Notes under the pieces: model-generated
Told to the model about the DNA's origin: nothing
Database searches by the model: none
Seen by the model: only the letters and a program-made list of their open reading frames with translations
Part shown: positions 16,171 to 19,932 of the stretch, piece after piece
Numbering within the stretch: position 1 is the first letter of the stretch
Layout of the letters: each line of letters opens with the position of its first letter
Origin: Candidatus Doudnabacteria bacterium
GTDB lineage: Bacteria > Patescibacteriota > Doudnabacteria > UBA920
Length of the DNA stretch: 64,000 nt
Assembly: GCA_031291995.1 (NCBI GenBank)
Contig: JARLHZ010000004.1
Location: forward strand, 5,272-69,271
Direction: 5' to 3'
Made by a program: the position numbers and the translations under genes

Positions 16171-19100
16171 ATGGGTGATTTATTAAGATTTAACCACTTG
16201 TTCCAGAAATTAAAATCAAAATTCTTTAAGAAATTACCCCCCGTTCTGTTTATTACTATACTTGCTCTTTCTACTGTGGCAAGCCTTTTTGCGTTACCCA
16301 TTCAGGCAAGTGCCGCGGGGAATACGTATAATTTTAGCGACATGCAGTTTACGGAAACCGTTCAAATTTGTAGCGGACCGACCGGACCATGCAGCAACAG
16401 TAATTTTATAAGAGTGGCTCAAAATCAGGATTTTTATGTTCAAGTTACCATAGCGGTTACGGGTTTAACCAACACTGCACATCAAACGGTAAACAGCCTT
16501 GACTTTAGTAATGATGAAATTTATGTTCCAGGTTGGACTAATACTAACTTAAACATTAGCGGTGTTGGGCCTAGTTTTGTTGCAAAAGTCACTCAGCAGC
16601 AGGCTCAGGTAATTCAACAAAAAATAGCGGCCGGCGCTGACCCTTCAACTATAGCCGGAGTTCCGTGTTACACAGAATCTATTACCACTACAGGAGGGGT
16701 GGCTACAAAGGGCGTGGCAGTTCTTGGTGGTACGGCTTTGTTTGTCGGAACAGCCGCGGCTACTGGAGGAGCCAGTGTTGTGGTGTACGGGTTGGCAACC
16801 GCGGCAGCCGCTGGTGGGGCAGCGTCAACTGTGGGTTGGGCTGCAATAAGTGGCACTAATTCCGTTACGAAGTGTGATGGGCCTGTCAGGCCATCGCCCC
16901 AAGGCAGCGGAACTGTGAATGTTGGAAGTAACGTATATCAGCAAATAATTGCGGTTCCTTCTACAAGTTTTTCCAATTTGGGCATTTCGCAACAGGCTAA
17001 TTCTGCCAATAATGCGAGTACAGAGCCGGTAAATGAATTGTATGTTGTACCCGATGTTTATTACAGCACTTTGGCCAGCTCGCTAGGAAATTTTTTCACT
17101 GGCACGACTGGATCGTTTATTTCGGCAGCTGGAGCTGGCAAAAGTATCTATGTCCAGCTTTATGACAACCAAACAGACCTGACTGCCCATTTGAATGACG
17201 CTGTTCCCGGTTCGGTGCCGAATAACGGATCAAATACCGGCTCCGGACAAAATGTAAACGGGGGCGGAGGTGGTAATCCGATTACCAATTTTTTAACGGA
17301 GATTATCGGGGTAATCTTGGGAATTTTCCAGGAAATAATCTTTGCCATTTTTTCTTTCCTTGTTGCGCCACTGCTTCAGGCCTTACTAAGCATCCAAGCT
17401 TATAAAGATACTTTTGTAGCGGTTATTTATCCCGGTTGGATTGTCATTCGCAACCTTTGCGACATTATGTTTATTGTGGCGCTTATTGTTATTGCCATGG
17501 CCACACTGTTCCGCATAGATAGCTATCAGTACAAACATTTGCTGGTACAGCTAATCATTGCAGCTTTATTAATCAATTTCAGTTTGGTGGTTGGCCAAGC
17601 GGTCTTAGGAATTGCCGACACTGTACAGGCACAATTTTTGCCTGCTAACGTTACCGTGATTAAATCCCTTGCCGGCGATTTGATGGTCAATAATTGGCGT
17701 AAGAGTTTTTTGACAAATGCCGCCCAACAATTATTTAGCGGTTCGTTTTCCGATATAGTTATACCATTTTTCTATTTGGCTTTGTCTTTGGGTAGCTTTA
17801 TGGTTTTTGTGGCCATAGCCGCGTTTTTATTCATTCGGATACTTGCTTTATGGGTATTGTTAATGATTTCACCCGTTGCGTATGTTTGCGGAATTTTACC
17901 TGCCACGGAACATTATCGGACCCAATGGTGGGAGACGTTTTTAAAGTACGCCTTCTTCACACCCATAATGGCATTTTTCTTGAACATGGCCGCTATAATG
18001 TCGAACACTTCCCAGACAACCCCAATTTTACAGCAGGTCAATAGCGCGGCCATAACATCAGCCTTTGGTAATTCCGATGTCGCCACTTTCGTGTTCAAGG
18101 TTGGCAGCAATATATTATTGTTGATTTTTCTAATTGCCGGCCTGATGGTCGCGGACAAATTCAGCATCATCGGCGCCAAACAAGTCTCCGACTTCGCCAC
18201 CAAATACGGCTGGCAAGCGCCGTTTGGGCTTACAGCCATGGGCGCCAAAGCGGGGGGTAATTTGATTCGTAGGAATGTAACAGAAAAAATTGGAGAAAAA
18301 ATCGGCGCGTGGAGCGGGATTGGGCAGAAAAATGAAGATAGAGCTAAGGCAGCAGCTATAAAAGGCAAAATATCCGCAGCTGAATTAGCGAGGCTAGAAG
18401 CGAAAGTTGCTAAGGGGGAGGCTCTAACAGACGAAGAAACAAAGGACATGGCCGCTTTACCTGCTAAAATTGCGCAGGCGGAAAGGATTCATGCGGATGC
18501 GGAAAGAAAACGTAAAAGTGCGGCTCGTCGCAGTGGAGCTTGGAGGGCTTTGTCTTTTTTTGATCCAAAAGTTGTTAGTGAAGCTTGGAAGAAAAGAGAA
18601 CATGAAAAAGAGGCTAAAGCCTATGAGCCAGCTATTGGTTATATGCAGGATACTTTAAATAGAGTTGTTCCTTCGGAATGGTTAAAATCAGGAGATTATC
18701 CAGGCAAGCCAGGTTCCGGAGGTATGGGCAAAAAAACTTTTCATGGTTTAGTAGCCAAGAGAGATCTGATATCAAAGGAAACAAAGGAATTGCAGGAGGG
18801 TGTAAGGACCCGCGATGATGCCTTTAAAATAGCTGATGCGGCGTTCGATTCAAATGATAAACATTTAATACATGCTGCATTGAAAATTCTGCAACATGGA
18901 AACTGGCAAGATGATTATATGAATGCCAGAGGCAGGTTGAGCAAAACTCACTCTATTCTTCGGTACATGAAGGATATGCATCAAATAATGAGTGAAAATA
19001 ACTTTGATGAAGAAGAAGAGCTTGAAGTTTTGGATGATTTGCAGGAAACAGGAGAAGGAGATAATCGCTTTCGGGCTTACGGTTATAGGTGTACTGATGG

Positions 19101-19932
19101 CGATGGTGTAGTCAGGGCGGCTTACGATTTAGAATATTTAGAACACTTACAGCACACAGACCCAGTTGCTTTTAAAAACGCATTAGAAGAATATGCTAAT
19201 AAGTTTATTGCTACTGGGGAAAAAACAAAGATACAACAGTTTACGGATATTGGTAATAAACTTAAGGAGGCGGCAAATAATGGTTCGAGATTTGCTGATA
19301 TAAAGAAAGAGCATTTTGGAGAAGGCGATGATGAAACTTTAGAAGATGCGATAATCCAAAGAAGATTTTTGGATGAGGCTAATATTAAATTGCAAAGAGG
19401 TCAGGCCGGAGGGCATGCAGGAGGTTTGGAAGCCGCAATTTTTGCGGATCAAGATCCAGAAAAAGGATGGCGCAACCTTAACCTTATGGGTATGATGCTG
19501 ATGAATGAGTTGCCACCTACTATATTGCGCGCTTATTTGGGACGCATTCACCAAGGCCAAGCCAGACCTCTAAAAGCTTTTGGTGCCGTTCAGGACGAAC
19601 TCACAGGAAAGTGGCAATTGCCGGAATTTGTCGAAGGGAAGGCCTTAAAAGGTGGAAATGTAAATAAGGGGAGCAACCAAGGTGATGCAGTGCTGAGGTT
19701 GGTAAATGTTTATAAGGCTAATCCAGCCATTTTTACTGAACTTATAGAGAACAAACAGCTTTTTGGAAATGATAATGTTGAAAAGTTTACCGCAGGATTT
19801 AAGGGTTTGATTGCCGCACACCCTGAATATAATATTACCCCAAAGGGATTTGATGAGACCTTACTAAATGCTAAAAAATCTCAACCAGGGTACAGAGCCG
19901 AACCAACAACTGCTCCGCCGCCTACCCCATAA
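16171..19932 (+). CDS. TrbL/VirB6-like polytopic membrane protein with a secreted N-terminal domain and a long hydrophilic C-terminal extension (1253 aa)
   Basis: Signal peptide, then a ~350-aa Gly/Ala/Thr-rich region, then 6-8 TM helices (aa ~370-670) in a TrbL/VirB6-like arrangement, then a ~580-aa charged coiled-coil-like tail. It is in the same cluster as VirB4. Confidence 0.45.
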   Translation: MGDLLRFNHLFQKLKSKFFKKLPPVLFITILALSTVASLFALPIQASAAGNTYNFSDMQFTETVQICSGPTGPCSNSNFIRVAQNQDFYVQVTIAVTGLTNTAHQTVNSLDFSNDEIYVPGWTNTNLNISGVGPSFVAKVTQQQAQVIQQKIAAGADPSTIAGVPCYTESITTTGGVATKGVAVLGGTALFVGTAAATGGASVVVYGLATAAAAGGAASTVGWAAISGTNSVTKCDGPVRPSPQGSGTVNVGSNVYQQIIAVPSTSFSNLGISQQANSANNASTEPVNELYVVPDVYYSTLASSLGNFFTGTTGSFISAAGAGKSIYVQLYDNQTDLTAHLNDAVPGSVPNNGSNTGSGQNVNGGGGGNPITNFLTEIIGVILGIFQEIIFAIFSFLVAPLLQALLSIQAYKDTFVAVIYPGWIVIRNLCDIMFIVALIVIAMATLFRIDSYQYKHLLVQLIIAALLINFSLVVGQAVLGIADTVQAQFLPANVTVIKSLAGDLMVNNWRKSFLTNAAQQLFSGSFSDIVIPFFYLALSLGSFMVFVAIAAFLFIRILALWVLLMISPVAYVCGILPATEHYRTQWWETFLKYAFFTPIMAFFLNMAAIMSNTSQTTPILQQVNSAAITSAFGNSDVATFVFKVGSNILLLIFLIAGLMVADKFSIIGAKQVSDFATKYGWQAPFGLTAMGAKAGGNLIRRNVTEKIGEKIGAWSGIGQKNEDRAKAAAIKGKISAAELARLEAKVAKGEALTDEETKDMAALPAKIAQAERIHADAERKRKSAARRSGAWRALSFFDPKVVSEAWKKREHEKEAKAYEPAIGYMQDTLNRVVPSEWLKSGDYPGKPGSGGMGKKTFHGLVAKRDLISKETKELQEGVRTRDDAFKIADAAFDSNDKHLIHAALKILQHGNWQDDYMNARGRLSKTHSILRYMKDMHQIMSENNFDEEEELEVLDDLQETGEGDNRFRAYGYRCTDGDGVVRAAYDLEYLEHLQHTDPVAFKNALEEYANKFIATGEKTKIQQFTDIGNKLKEAANNGSRFADIKKEHFGEGDDETLEDAIIQRRFLDEANIKLQRGQAGGHAGGLEAAIFADQDPEKGWRNLNLMGMMLMNELPPTILRAYLGRIHQGQARPLKAFGAVQDELTGKWQLPEFVEGKALKGGNVNKGSNQGDAVLRLVNVYKANPAIFTELIENKQLFGNDNVEKFTAGFKGLIAAHPEYNITPKGFDETLLNAKKSQPGYRAEPTTAPPPTP

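Follow-up and report, generated by a model that had tools for sequence, protein, structure and literature searches.

The locus considered here raises the question of what kind of protein is encoded by a single long gene next to T4SS genes of Candidatus Doudnabacteria, and what the regions on either side of its membrane core might do. The analysis covered the window, a continuous stretch of 64,000 nucleotides of one contig. At 1,253 aa the protein is far longer than a classical VirB6, as a preliminary reading of the sequence by itself (hereafter the sequence-only reading) had already pointed out. It is an ordinary member of a known group, consisting of a conserved membrane core and two fast-evolving add-on domains.

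A single gene with a three-part plan

The gene (Table 1) is an uninterrupted ORF from ATG to stop, and NCBI holds an identical protein, 'MAG: hypothetical protein P4L74_00490 [Candidatus Doudnabacteria bacterium]'. The promoter-like site upstream matches 10 of 12 consensus positions and has an extended -10 TG; it is a candidate, recognised by pattern match only. Word-indexed homologues of the protein (n=68) range from 718 to 1,394 aa.

By hydropathy and composition the protein falls into four parts: a hydrophobic segment at the N-terminus (residues 21-48, ending in ALPIQASA/AG), a G/T/A/V/S-rich region with just 6.9% charged residues (51-370), five hydrophobic blocks within residues 373-669, and a region with a charged fraction of 30% (701-1253). 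The protein begins with a signal-peptide-like N-terminus, continues with an exported domain of ~320 aa and then a hydrophobic core (370-712), and ends in a tail of ~540 aa, so that the layout of signal peptide, exported N-domain, multi-TM core and long tail proposed earlier is borne out.

The AT skew shifts sharply along the gene (-0.10 in 16-18 kb, +0.16 in 18-20 kb), as might be expected if an assembly or frameshift artefact had fused two or three genes. However, this shift tracks amino-acid content, from the hydrophobic core to the Lys/Glu-rich tail, and the deposited annotation is identical. Furthermore, N-extension, core and tail follow one another in a single ORF in 96 family members from independent assemblies (median N-extension 261 aa, median tail 490 aa), and the same plan is seen in independent genomes with identical gene order. 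Because the layout recurs in these 96 members and in independent syntenic genomes, it is not the product of chance or misassembly; the fusion reading is refuted by the 96 relatives, and the probability that we would still assign to it is negligible.

Table 1. Features of the VirB6 gene and its surroundings (positions in the window)
Feature	Position	Strand	Basis
U1-U3, three genes with hydrophobic N-termini, upstream of VirB6 gene	10984..14276	+	syntenic
Promoter-like site TTGTGA-16 nt-(TG)TATAAT (candidate)	16120..16147	+	consensus scan, 24 nt upstream of ATG
Extended VirB6/TrbL-family gene	16171..19932	+	ORF list; identical NCBI protein; homologues
Signal-peptide-like N-terminus, residues 1-48	16171..16314	+	KD hydropathy; sequence read directly
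Exported beta-rich module A, residues 49-174 (predicted)	16315..16692	+	AF2; Cys pair in CSGPTGPC
Gly/Ala/Thr/Val-rich low-complexity insert, residues 175-228	16693..16854	+	AF2, hydropathy
Exported beta-rich module B and Gly/Asn-rich linker, residues 229-369 (predicted)	16855..17277	+	AF2
VirB6/TrbL core, residues 370-712	17278..18306	+	AF2, Foldseek, Pfam via homologues
Codon of Trp586	17926..17928	+	invariant in family; aligned with TrwI/VirB6 Trp
Lys/Glu/Ala/Arg-rich linker, residues 713-760	18307..18450	+	composition; between two AF2 models
Family-specific C-terminal domain, residues 761-1240 (predicted)	18451..19890	+	AF2
D1, 518-aa gene, immediately downstream of VirB6 gene	19964..21520	+	ORF; divergence tracks VirB6 tail
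PrgI/VirB3-family gene	24201..24653	+	Pfam PF12666, E=3.9e-13
TraC-like/TrsD-type 227-aa gene, upstream of virB4	25226..25909	+	orthologues with PF26593
VirB4-family ATPase	26033..27880	+	Pfam P-loop_TraG 1.2e-27, AAA_10, CagE_TrbE_VirB
1,082-aa protein with C-terminal lysozyme-like SLT_3 domain	28046..31294	+	Pfam PF18896, E=1e-5, just below cut-off

The T4SS locus

The VirB6 gene is always accompanied by virB3/prgI, the TraC-like gene, virB4 and a gene for a large lysozyme-like protein, with housekeeping genes on either side, and the same gene order, flanked by UvrD/KsgA and RadA, is found on contigs of 1.21 Mb and 868 kb. Across related loci L007-L051, identity is 77-92% for VirB4 and 54-80% for the TraC-like protein, whose orthologues in loci L001 and L002 bear the TraC-like domain PF26593. 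The SLT_3 protein is a candidate for the VirB1 role, and its position is filled likewise in locus L002. U1-U3 gave no Pfam matches; homologues of U2 and U3 keep their position in most related loci, and the Cys content of the homologues is 2.1% for U1, 0.76% for U3 and just 0.018% for U2. Scanning the 43 other ORFs of at least 150 aa and the shorter ORFs of the window revealed no relaxase or coupling protein (T4CP), and no VirB2-like pilin genes were recognised in the window. Patescibacteria T4SS without coupling protein or relaxase have been described (PMC12102498; PMC10633639).

The VirB6/TrbL core

The AF2 model of the core has seven long helices (370-407, 414-446, 454-489, 494-515, 527-573, 577-616 and 636-663) followed by an amphipathic helix (669-708). 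When this model was compared with the PDB by Foldseek, the top five matches were all TrwI/VirB6 chains of R388 (probability 1.00, target-normalised TM 0.42-0.53, ~300 columns, with modest E of 4e-3 to 4e-2), and a fold search of BFVD gives TrbL-annotated proteins. In the published structures (PDB 7O3V, 8RT9, 8RTD; Mace et al. 2022, PMC9259494), TrwI likewise has seven long, mostly hydrophobic helices, and the Trp-containing segment is common to both. At the sequence level the likeness is marginal: hhalign sets query residues 550-611 on TrwI 163-224 without gaps (62 columns, P=0.002), placing Trp586 on the Trp of TrwI 'DQW'. A Trp conserved throughout the VirB6 family has been described (PMC7648143), and W586 is one of the family-invariant columns, along with A465, R556, P568, P598 and G668.

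A Pfam TrbL search with the query itself did not reach the cut-off (E=6.7), and the family profile found no VirB6 in the PDB by sequence. Homologues 54-59% identical over the core do pass Pfam TrbL (26.1-26.7 bits, cut-off 25.9), TrbL is matched at E of at most 0.01 in 16 of 41 tail-bearing relatives, and precomputed domain assignments give the query PF19590 (TrbL_3) and most of the homologues either PF04610 or PF19590. Relatives are 42-81% identical in the core, and the bundle is conserved in at least 352 Patescibacteria species genomes.

The lack of a direct significant Pfam match to the query would also be expected if the core belonged to some other polytopic membrane protein beside T4SS genes, such as an ABC-type permease; indeed, the Tn-seq table of PMC10633639 labels SEML1_0011 and SEML1_0013 of Southlakia epibionticum as K01992 (permease) by KEGG-style annotation. 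Against this, Pfam TrbL is matched transitively, the five best PDB folds are TrwI/VirB6 chains, the invariant Trp sits on the TrwI Trp, and the gene is strictly syntenic with VirB3 and VirB4 across dozens of genomes. A permease is thus very improbable. The alignment to TrbL proposed in the sequence-only reading comes out in favour of a TrbL/VirB6-like core, and we conclude with high confidence that the protein is the VirB6 component of the T4SS.

The exported N-terminal domain

Residues 1-48 comprise a Lys-rich n-region, a hydrophobic h-region (21-43; KD hydropathy peak 2.27 at residues 26-44) and an A-S-A/A site. They resemble a signal peptide, but could alternatively be an uncleaved anchor. 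The sequence-only reading had described the whole following region as Gly/Ala/Thr/Val-rich and extracellular. Such a region is present, but it is confined to a 54-residue insert (175-228) between two beta-rich modules. The insert has AF2 pLDDT of 30-44, is mildly hydrophobic (maximum KD19 1.54, under the TM threshold used) and is shared by the query with just 4 close relatives (5 of 50 relatives). Module A is predicted with strands at 52-67, 79-101 and 127-138 (block pLDDT 94-97 for residues 51-100 and 78-94 for 101-170). In module B, pLDDT is 90-97 for 231-300 and 93-97 for 321-360, falling at 301-320 (56, 77) and 361-370 (61). The part most often alignable in relatives corresponds to query residues ~250-370, and family N-extensions contain 1.2% Cys.

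The C-terminal tail and its divergence

The tail had been expected to be a long charged helical or coiled-coil extension, a description that now fits only the ~50-residue linker at ~713-760. The peptide quoted in its support, AAIKGKISAAELARLEAKVAKGE, lies at residues ~715-770, and residues 701-800 are 37% charged with a net charge of +7. The rest of the tail forms a compact fold in the AF2 model (residues 761-1240, mean pLDDT 88.6, pTM 0.86), made up of a helical hairpin (762-832), a flexible Gly-rich loop (833-857) and a compact, mainly helical body (858-1237). The tail thus combines a short basic linker with a domain of ~480 aa, unique to the family, that is confidently predicted to be compact and mainly helical. 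An exhaustive phmmer search with this domain against 1.84 billion representatives gave 36 matches in all; in those of sufficient length for a judgement (~800-1,390 aa) the similarity lies at the C-terminal end, and the remainder are short sequences of 175-570 aa. A PDB fold search with the domain found no relative, the best matches being helical-repeat proteins (E 0.047, TM ~0.2).

Tail and N-domain are the fastest-diverging parts of the locus, with a normalised similarity of 0.04 each, compared to 0.80 for VirB4. At least four sequence types of tail can be distinguished, with a relationship between them visible only at profile level; the best tail matches are found on cores just 30-45% identical, and among the 20 closest cores tail similarity is undetectable. 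Tail divergence is also specifically associated with D1. In a partial Mantel comparison of tail with D1 given the core, r=0.29 (p=0.0005), while the same comparison for seven other locus parts gave -0.11 to 0.12. The D1 position is occupied in 38 of 41 loci; D1 itself has no Pfam match, and no hydrophobic N-terminus is evident when its sequence is read by eye. The co-variation of tail and D1 could also stem from the replacement of neighbouring DNA in one piece instead of a physical interaction.

The profile-level tail types, their discordance with core relatedness and the specificity of the D1 association are what one would expect if the distal tail were a polymorphic effector or toxin module swapped among lineages, with D1 as its cognate immunity protein, chaperone or co-effector. 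Several properties count against this model. Neither a toxin or enzyme family nor a catalytic motif was detected, all tail types are similar in length and keep a common proximal module, and the helical, repeat-like fold suggests a scaffold. Furthermore, D1 is far larger than typical immunity proteins, and the gene is present as a single copy in a core operon. An effector module is highly unlikely on these grounds.

Topology of the tail

The 49 residues after the last hydrophobic helix contain a mean of 7.0 Lys+Arg versus 2.6 Asp+Glu; the loop preceding that helix is net negative, and the Trp loop is net positive. Topology has been mapped for VirB6 of A. tumefaciens, Brucella and H. pylori, where the C-terminus is cytoplasmic, and the order of Trp loop, two hydrophobic helices and C-terminus is the same here (PMC7648143). 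The tails contain 0.017% Cys (10 Cys in 59,507 residues), far below the N-extensions or the window proteome (0.59%), and Cys is abundant in most exported parts of the locus. From charge distribution, tested homologues and the near-absence of Cys, which do not amount to proof, we infer that the C-terminal ~540 residues are probably cytoplasmic.

The number of membrane-spanning helices is ambiguous, and a six-helix count puts the tail outside. Hydropathy counting is unreliable for VirB6 because just two VirB6 helices lie in the membrane in the R388 structure (PMC9259494).

An extracytoplasmic C-terminal domain, whether exposed on the surface, released or translocated to the host bacterium, with a role in host contact, specificity or exclusion, is the most serious competitor. 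Six strongly hydrophobic AF2 helices follow the exported N-domain and, were all of them to cross the membrane, the tail would lie outside. The N-extension is just as hypervariable as the tail, the type of tail does not follow the relatedness of the cores, and divergence this extreme is seen more typically in exposed or antagonistically evolving domains than in a cytoplasmic scaffold. There is also precedent among extended VirB6 proteins, whose tails are surface-exposed in Anaplasma and reported to be periplasmic in F TraG (PMC7648143); roles in host contact, specificity or exclusion have been proposed for Anaplasma VirB6-3/-4 and F/SXT TraG. However, the segment right after the last hydrophobic helix is strongly positive, the tail is Lys/Glu-rich with over four times the charged fraction of the exported N-domain, it nearly lacks the Cys of the exported parts, and canonical VirB6 C-termini are cytoplasmic. 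An outside location is unlikely, although clearly less so than an effector module. The earlier suggestion that the extensions contact the host or are secreted therefore fits the exported N-domain, while the evidence on the C-terminal tail favours the cytoplasm.

Comparison with other VirB6 systems

TrwI differs from the present protein in its size (342 aa) and in having neither an exported N-domain nor a large C-terminal domain; it also belongs to a diderm system, in which it carries VirB5. The 'extended-VirB6' class includes F/SXT TraG as well as the VirB6 proteins of 700-900 aa from monoderm MPF-FA systems (PMC12857230; PMC7648143), and Patescibacteria examples are in print, so that the view of extended VirB6 as mainly a Rickettsiales feature does not hold. 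TcpH of pCW3 (832 aa) and, by its description, F/SXT TraG resemble the present protein in combining a VirB6-like polytopic region with a large hydrophilic C-terminal region. No homology to TcpH was detectable by hhalign for the tail or N-domain profile (P=0.66 and 0.71), and MPF-FA extensions are said to hold unstructured domains (PMC12857230), in contrast to the predicted fold of the tail.

Rickettsiales VirB6 proteins (RvhB6; Anaplasma VirB6-1 to -4) similarly have a TrbL/VirB6 domain flanked by long hydrophilic N- or C-terminal regions, and share the conserved Trp and a possible N-terminal signal peptide (PMC7648143). They occur as 4-5 tandem paralogues in a diderm P-type system, as opposed to the single copy of a monoderm-type system here. 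VirB6-3 and VirB6-4 (the latter up to 9,935 aa) have repeat-rich, surface-exposed C-termini (PMC7648143), whereas the tail here is non-repetitive and is predicted to be folded and cytoplasmic.

The closest published parallels are within the phylum. A Patescibacteria T4SS including a VirB6 homologue has been reported (Quinonero-Coronel et al. 2025, PMC12102498), and Southlakia epibionticum ML1 has two VirB6-like proteins, SEML1_0013 (1,088 aa) and SEML1_0011 (998 aa), to which the supplement assigns 'ARM repeat' domains at the C-terminus (Wang et al. 2023, PMC10633639, Tables S1/S2). In both organisms PrgI, a TraC/TrsD-like gene and VirB4 lie together in a chromosomal locus that has no relaxase or coupling protein nearby; judged by the published descriptions, the proteins share a length of ~1,000-1,250 aa, a TrbL/VirB6-like membrane part and a helical C-terminal domain. 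The present organism differs in class (Doudnabacteria/ABY1-type rather than Saccharimonadia) and in having one VirB6-like gene instead of two, and it differs further in that the window shows no recognisable VirB2-like pilin genes. In the passages searched, these papers do not discuss the add-on domains, how variable they are or any link to the downstream gene. The fastest divergence of tail and N-domain, the tail-core discordance and the tail-D1 co-variation are possibly new.

Implications for the Patescibacteria T4SS

The full reading, in which the gene encodes an 'extended-VirB6' of a chromosomal, monoderm-type (MPF-FATA-related) Patescibacteria T4SS with the topology and tail role proposed here, is moderately favoured. 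By analogy with R388 TrwI, a pentameric channel base above VirB4, the core would oligomerise in the middle of the machine, over the VirB4 ATPase, and form the base of the translocation path. The N-terminal segment would act as a signal peptide or anchor and the Cys-containing, beta-rich domain of ~320 aa would lie outside the cell, where its very fast divergence would fit contact with the host-cell surface or the envelope. In S. epibionticum, the VirB6-like genes are essential for growth on the host (PMC10633639).

The function of the extension in extended VirB6 proteins was stated to be unknown in a 2025 review (PMC12857230). For the tail described here, the most likely role may be that of a protein-docking platform under the channel, for the ATPase layer or for partners or substrates particular to the lineage, among which D1 is the best candidate; we offer this pairing with D1 tentatively. 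Docking on the tail might thereby compensate for the missing coupling protein.

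Layout and integrity of the focal gene

The ORF listing of the window contains the focal gene as a single unbroken reading frame, and the identical deposited protein carries the name [quoted passage not shown]. A Kyte-Doolittle scan reveals a hydrophobic N-terminal segment (residues 21-48, ending ALPIQASA|AG) and five further hydrophobic blocks (373-411, 421-452, 454-485, 527-580 and 636-669). By regional composition, residues 51-370 are rich in Gly, Thr, Ala, Val and Ser with only 6.9% charged residues, and residues 701-1253 are charged at 30%. The layout proposed in the sequence-only reading, with a signal peptide, an extracellular region, a multi-span core and a long charged tail, was thus reproduced. 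That reading had also raised the prospect that the ORF is an artefactual fusion of two genes. Fusion or frameshift is ruled out by the same three-part order in 96 family members, each with an extension before the core (N-extension; median 261 aa, range 35-562), the core, and a tail after it (median 490 aa, ~30% charged). In PMC12857230, the extended-VirB6 subtype is defined by at least one large hydrophilic domain besides the hydrophobic helices. The focal protein has two, an N-domain of ~320 aa and a tail of ~540 aa, and is an extended VirB6 by this definition.

Relatives were found in 352 Patescibacteria genomes in a scan of one genome per species, with submitter labels that include Doudnabacteria, "uncultured Saccharibacteria", Shapirobacteria, Paceibacterota and Azam-, Harrison-, Wolfe- and Yanofskybacteria. 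Past the core, complete ORFs of the closer loci (L007-L051) extend for 374-788 residues. The Paceibacteria-type loci (L052-L086), which are more distant, have a short N-extension and a tail of 86-405 residues. The window has one VirB6-like ORF, as does each related locus except L037, where the gene (7089-10879) consists of two overlapping ORFs with the break in the C-terminal part of the core, likely a frameshift or pseudogene in that assembly.

A chromosomal T4SS locus

The window encodes IleRS, RecO, UvrD, KsgA, RadA, RecG, ScpA/B, AspRS and Lgt, and looks like part of the chromosome of a small-genome bacterium. The genes around the focal gene are listed below; a PaaX/Cas2-like gene also lies upstream of it.

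Features of the T4SS locus and its surroundings in the window
Feature	Position	Remarks
U1-U3, three genes upstream of the focal gene	10984-14276	each with a hydrophobic N-terminus; no Pfam match
~160-nt unit, first copy	15307-15468	palindrome at 15325-15364, one mismatch
~160-nt unit, second copy	15714-15877	palindrome at 15732-15771, perfect
Promoter-like site TTGTGA-16-TG-TATAAT	24 nt 5' of the focal ATG	pattern match
Focal gene	16171-19932 (+)	1,253 codons
D1, first gene downstream of the focal gene	19964-21520	~510 aa; no Pfam match
D2, downstream of D1	22173-23696	~510 aa; no Pfam match
AAATTACAAAT-type motif in D1 (two copies) and D2	21022-21132, 22373-22451	within coding sequence
Degenerate repeats in D2	22320-22990	7/14-nt units
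23S-rRNA-IVP-type gene	23749-24123	Pfam E=2.2e-12; region with repeats 23706-24177
PrgI/VirB3-family gene	24201-24653	Pfam E=3.9e-13
PD-(D/E)XK_3 (GxxExxY-type) gene	24783-25181	132 aa; Pfam E=5e-27
TraC-like gene, after prgI		227 aa; orthologues bear PF26593
VirB4 ATPase, downstream of the TraC-like gene	26033-27880	
Lysozyme-like gene, after VirB4		1,082 aa; SLT_3 C-terminus
IS200/Y1-type transposase gene	43433-44110	Pfam Y1_Tnp E=8.9e-17

The gene order recurs on contigs of 1.21 Mb and 868 kb from related genomes (L001 and L002): a CHAP/LysM gene, UvrD, KsgA, the U genes, a long VirB6-like gene, two unknown genes, PrgI, the TraC-like gene, VirB4, the lysozyme-like gene and RadA. The VirB6-PrgI-VirB4 order is kept there and in most of L007-L051. 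This shared order marks the locus as vertically inherited and chromosomal, not as a mobile element. U1-U3 are syntenic before the VirB6 gene in most related genomes; they may encode parts of the T4SS that lie at the surface, such as VirB8-, VirB5- or pilin-like proteins. Among the window's 43 other ORFs of 150 aa or more, and the shorter ones included in the scan, neither a relaxase nor a coupling protein was detected, and the scan, systematic from 124 aa up, gave no match to the VirB2-like pilin families PF18895 and PF04956. The locus thus has VirB4, a TrsD/TraC-like gene, PrgI and housekeeping flanks with no detected relaxase or T4CP, the same traits that PMC12102498 describes for the chromosomal, MPF-FATA-related T4SS of Patescibacteria.

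Several smaller features were observed along the window. The intergenic ~160-nt unit upstream of the VirB6 gene is duplicated at 407-409 nt spacing with 82-92% identity. Each copy holds a 40-nt palindrome, TTGGTAGACAAAACG(C/T)GCGG|CCGCACGTTTTGTCTACCAA, followed by a minus-strand T-run; the arrangement is terminator-like on the minus strand, yet no gene ends at 15307-15877. The IVP-type gene, which encodes a four-helix bundle, is flanked by 44-nt inverted repeats (84% complementary) of the AAATTACAAAT-type motif that also occurs within D1 and D2, whose reading frames translate it into ITNNKLQIPNGEQG-like peptides. Together with its repeats, this gene resembles a small cassette that was inserted into the T4SS operon, and L002 has a PF05635 gene at the same place. 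Another small accessory insertion is the PD-(D/E)XK_3 gene that separates prgI from the TraC-like gene; L001 and L002 lack it there. In D2, repeats of the form (AGCGGAC/AGCAGAC)n encode 'ADSGQ/QQTADS' low-complexity stretches, and the protein is conserved between species in short segments only. The transposase gene lies ~12 kb downstream of the T4SS locus.

Assignment of the core to the VirB6 family

The query core falls below the cut-off of the Pfam TrbL family PF04610 (E=6.7; 6.9 bits against a cut-off of 25.9; residues 461-630), but close homologues rise above it. Three of these (P0015, P0019 and P0033), related to the query at E ~1e-126 to 1e-108 and 54-59% identical over the core, score 26.1-26.7 bits, and 16 of the 41 tail-bearing relatives match Pfam TrbL at E<=0.01 (best 2e-7). 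Precomputed database annotation lists PF19590 (TrbL_3) for the identical protein and PF19590 and/or PF04610 for most of 68 homologues. A very unlikely rival reading is a non-VirB6 permease; the query's own sub-threshold score would be compatible with it. An NCBIfam search of the focal protein gave no match, and sequence searches of the PDB, with the protein or a family profile, did not retrieve VirB6.

Structure prediction points the other way. The AF2 model has seven long helices across residues 370-663, and TrwI, the VirB6 of plasmid R388, likewise has seven (PMC9259494). In Foldseek, each of the top five PDB matches is a chain of TrwI/VirB6 (probability 1.00, target TM 0.42-0.53, ~300 aligned columns), at E-values of only 4e-3 to 4e-2, so that the predicted fold of the core resembles that of solved VirB6. 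A set of viral structures also yields TrbL-annotated proteins as fold matches. Finally, W586 is invariant across 53 family sequences, and a gapless hhalign alignment of query residues 550-611 with TrwI 163-224 (P=0.002; R388 sequence from NC_028464) places it on the Trp of the TrwI 'DQW'. VirB6 proteins are known to carry a conserved Trp in the loop that follows their central hydrophobic helix (PMC7648143). Because the transitive TrbL matches, helix number, TrwI fold matches and W586 alignment are consistent, we hold the core to be a VirB6-family domain with high confidence. The check that the sequence-only reading had called for, alignment of the core to TrbL, came out in its favor through the close homologues, with TrwI as the top fold.

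Predicted folds of the N-domain and the tail

The N-domain is predicted by AF2 to form two confident beta-rich modules (~52-170 and 230-360; pLDDT >90 in most 10-residue blocks), separated by a low-confidence Gly/Ala/Thr/Val insert at 175-228. The insert is common to the query and four close relatives only (5 of 50 relatives). It was considered as a membrane-helix pair typical of the family and rejected on its sub-threshold hydropathy, low confidence and rarity. A Foldseek search with the N-domain returned only low-probability beta-sandwich matches. N-extensions are Cys-rich (1.2%, with conserved Cys columns) and nearly unalignable between species, both of which fit an N-domain that is exported and exposed.

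The tail had been described in the sequence-only reading as a Lys/Glu/Ala-rich helical extension. This description holds for a linker at residues 713-760 and fails for the remainder, which AF2 models as a folded domain (residues 755-1253; mean pLDDT 88.6, pTM 0.86). In the model, a helical hairpin (762-832) and a flexible Gly-rich loop precede a compact body made mostly of helices and a few small hairpins, a prediction that contradicts an extended coiled coil. No repeat families were found within the tail-coding region, and a Pfam scan of the tail gave no match related to TraG, the F/SXT-type VirB6 whose C-terminal domain serves mating-pair stabilisation and entry exclusion. When 1.84 billion representative proteins were searched exhaustively with HMMER, just 36 matched the tail, all C-terminally where the protein was long enough to judge (the others are short, 175-570 aa); the domain therefore appears to be family-specific. 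Foldseek found no solved relative of the tail, its best matches being helical-repeat proteins at TM ~0.2. These agree loosely with the 'ARM repeat' that Table S2 of Wang et al. 2023 assigns to the C-terminal parts of SEML1_0013 and SEML1_0011, VirB6-like genes of Southlakia epibionticum.

Location of the tail

Counting hydropathy peaks is ambiguous on this point, since five or seven spans place the tail inside and six place it outside, and of the VirB6 helices in the R388 structure just two really lie in the membrane (PMC9259494). Three independent indications favor the cytoplasm. First, across 53 sequences the 49 residues past the last hydrophobic helix contain 7.0 Lys+Arg versus 2.6 Asp+Glu, with a net negative loop before that helix and a slightly positive Trp loop. 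Second, the Trp loop is followed by two hydrophobic helices and the C-terminus, the order found in the VirB6 proteins of A. tumefaciens, Brucella and H. pylori, whose C-termini were mapped to the cytoplasm (PMC7648143). Third, the tails contain 10 Cys in 59,507 residues (n=124; 0.017%), versus 0.59% for the proteins of the window. Among exported parts of the locus, the corresponding values are 1.2% for N-extensions, 2.1% for U1 and 0.76% for U3, with U2 as an exception (0.018% in homologues). Cytoplasmic T4SS components are generally Cys-poor (VirB4 0.11%, TraC-like 0.13%, D2 0.018%).

An exposed or delivered tail is a rival reading. Extended VirB6 tails are surface-exposed in Anaplasma and reported to be periplasmic in F TraG (PMC7648143), and a count of six spans would suit an exposed tail. 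Charge, mapped topologies and Cys scarcity nevertheless favor the opposite side of the membrane, and we consider the tail to be probably cytoplasmic.

Tail variability and co-variation with D1

Parts of the locus differ greatly in conservation. Normalised BLAST similarity (23-38 species-level loci, depending on the part) is 0.80 for VirB4, 0.67 for the TraC-like protein, 0.48 for both PrgI and the VirB6 core, 0.29 for U2, 0.18 for U3, 0.13 for D2 and 0.07 for D1, falling to 0.04 for both the N-extension and the tail. VirB4 is 77-92% identical across L007-L051, though other proteins of these loci have diverged greatly. BLAST sorts the tails into four main clusters (30, 30, 20 and 19 members), which are linked at the profile level only. 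Five of the six cluster pairs align in hhalign at 54-97% probability over 95-173 columns, and the sixth reaches 29%. The tail HMM was built iteratively from tail segments only.

Tail type is also discordant with core type. The six most similar tails (41-49% identity over ~390 aa) sit on cores that are 30-45% identical to the query's, and the 20 most similar cores (60-81%) carry tails with no similarity detectable by BLAST. This discordance argues for exchange of tail-coding sequence between lineages, beyond fast divergence alone. With the core controlled for, the tail co-varies with D1 (partial Mantel r=0.29, p=0.0005), weakly with PrgI (r=0.12) and VirB4 (r=0.09), and not with the N-extension, U2, U3, D2 or the TraC-like gene (r -0.11 to 0.02). 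The D1 correlation might have a trivial cause, namely that the two stretches of DNA are adjacent and physically linked. Variability and co-variation would also suit a rival but very unlikely reading, in which the tail is a polymorphic effector module and D1 its partner.

Relation to known systems

The focal gene is a typical extended VirB6 of the Patescibacteria T4SS, with nothing categorically new. Published work already covers the T4SS of Patescibacteria with its VirB6 homologues, its kinship to the conjugation systems of monoderms and its lack of a relaxase (PMC12102498). Also described are the essential role of this T4SS in S. epibionticum (PMC10633639) and the extended-VirB6 class, whose extra domains have no known function (PMC12857230). 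The supplementary tables for S. epibionticum list VirB6-like genes of ~1,000 aa with helical C-terminal domains (SEML1_0013, 1,088 aa; SEML1_0011, 998 aa; Wang et al. 2023, PMC10633639). The searched passages of PMC12102498, PMC10633639 and PMC12857230 contain no discussion of a folded, family-specific tail, of its extreme and discordant variability, or of its co-variation with the downstream gene; these three points are leads, not demonstrations.

The Rickettsiales RvhB6-type proteins are tandem paralogues with repeat-rich C-terminal extensions, in contrast to the query, which is single-copy with a repeat-free and predicted globular tail. TcpH of pCW3 (MPF-FA) shows no detectable homology to the C-terminal extension of the query (hhalign P=0.66 for the tail profile and 0.12 for the core profile, each against a single-sequence target). 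Core, tail and N-domain profiles gave no signal against the single sequences of PrgH (pCF10) and TcpH, a weak negative.

A possible seat of specificity

The T4SS locus that houses the VirB6-family core is complete and of monoderm type, and neither a coupling protein nor a relaxase was detected in the window. By analogy with R388, the core would oligomerise centrally in the machine, above VirB4. The N-domain would lie outside the cell as a candidate host-contact part, and the tail would form a cytoplasmic helical scaffold that docks partners, D1 being the best candidate. In this way the tail might take over recruitment, normally the task of a coupling protein.

A joint reading, which we regard as speculative and rather unlikely, is that two interchangeable modules on the conserved VirB6 core determine specificity. 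The exported N-domain would be adapted to the surface of the host cell, whereas the tail, along with D1, would undergo replacement or diversification apart from the remaining machine. The tail-D1 pair would then be a substrate- or partner-selecting device in a T4SS that lacks a coupling protein, or else the host bacterium would receive the tail itself. To our knowledge, the Patescibacteria T4SS is the only T4SS so far shown to be essential for the survival of its owner, and if the joint reading were true, the VirB6 tail would decide the cargo of an essential epibiont machine. A nearly frozen motor set against near-unrecognisable VirB6 add-on domains and the next gene is a concrete lead, testable in the genetically tractable S. 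epibionticum, which has comparable genes. A tail type that is decoupled from the core and tracks D1 points to a possible seat of host or cargo specificity.
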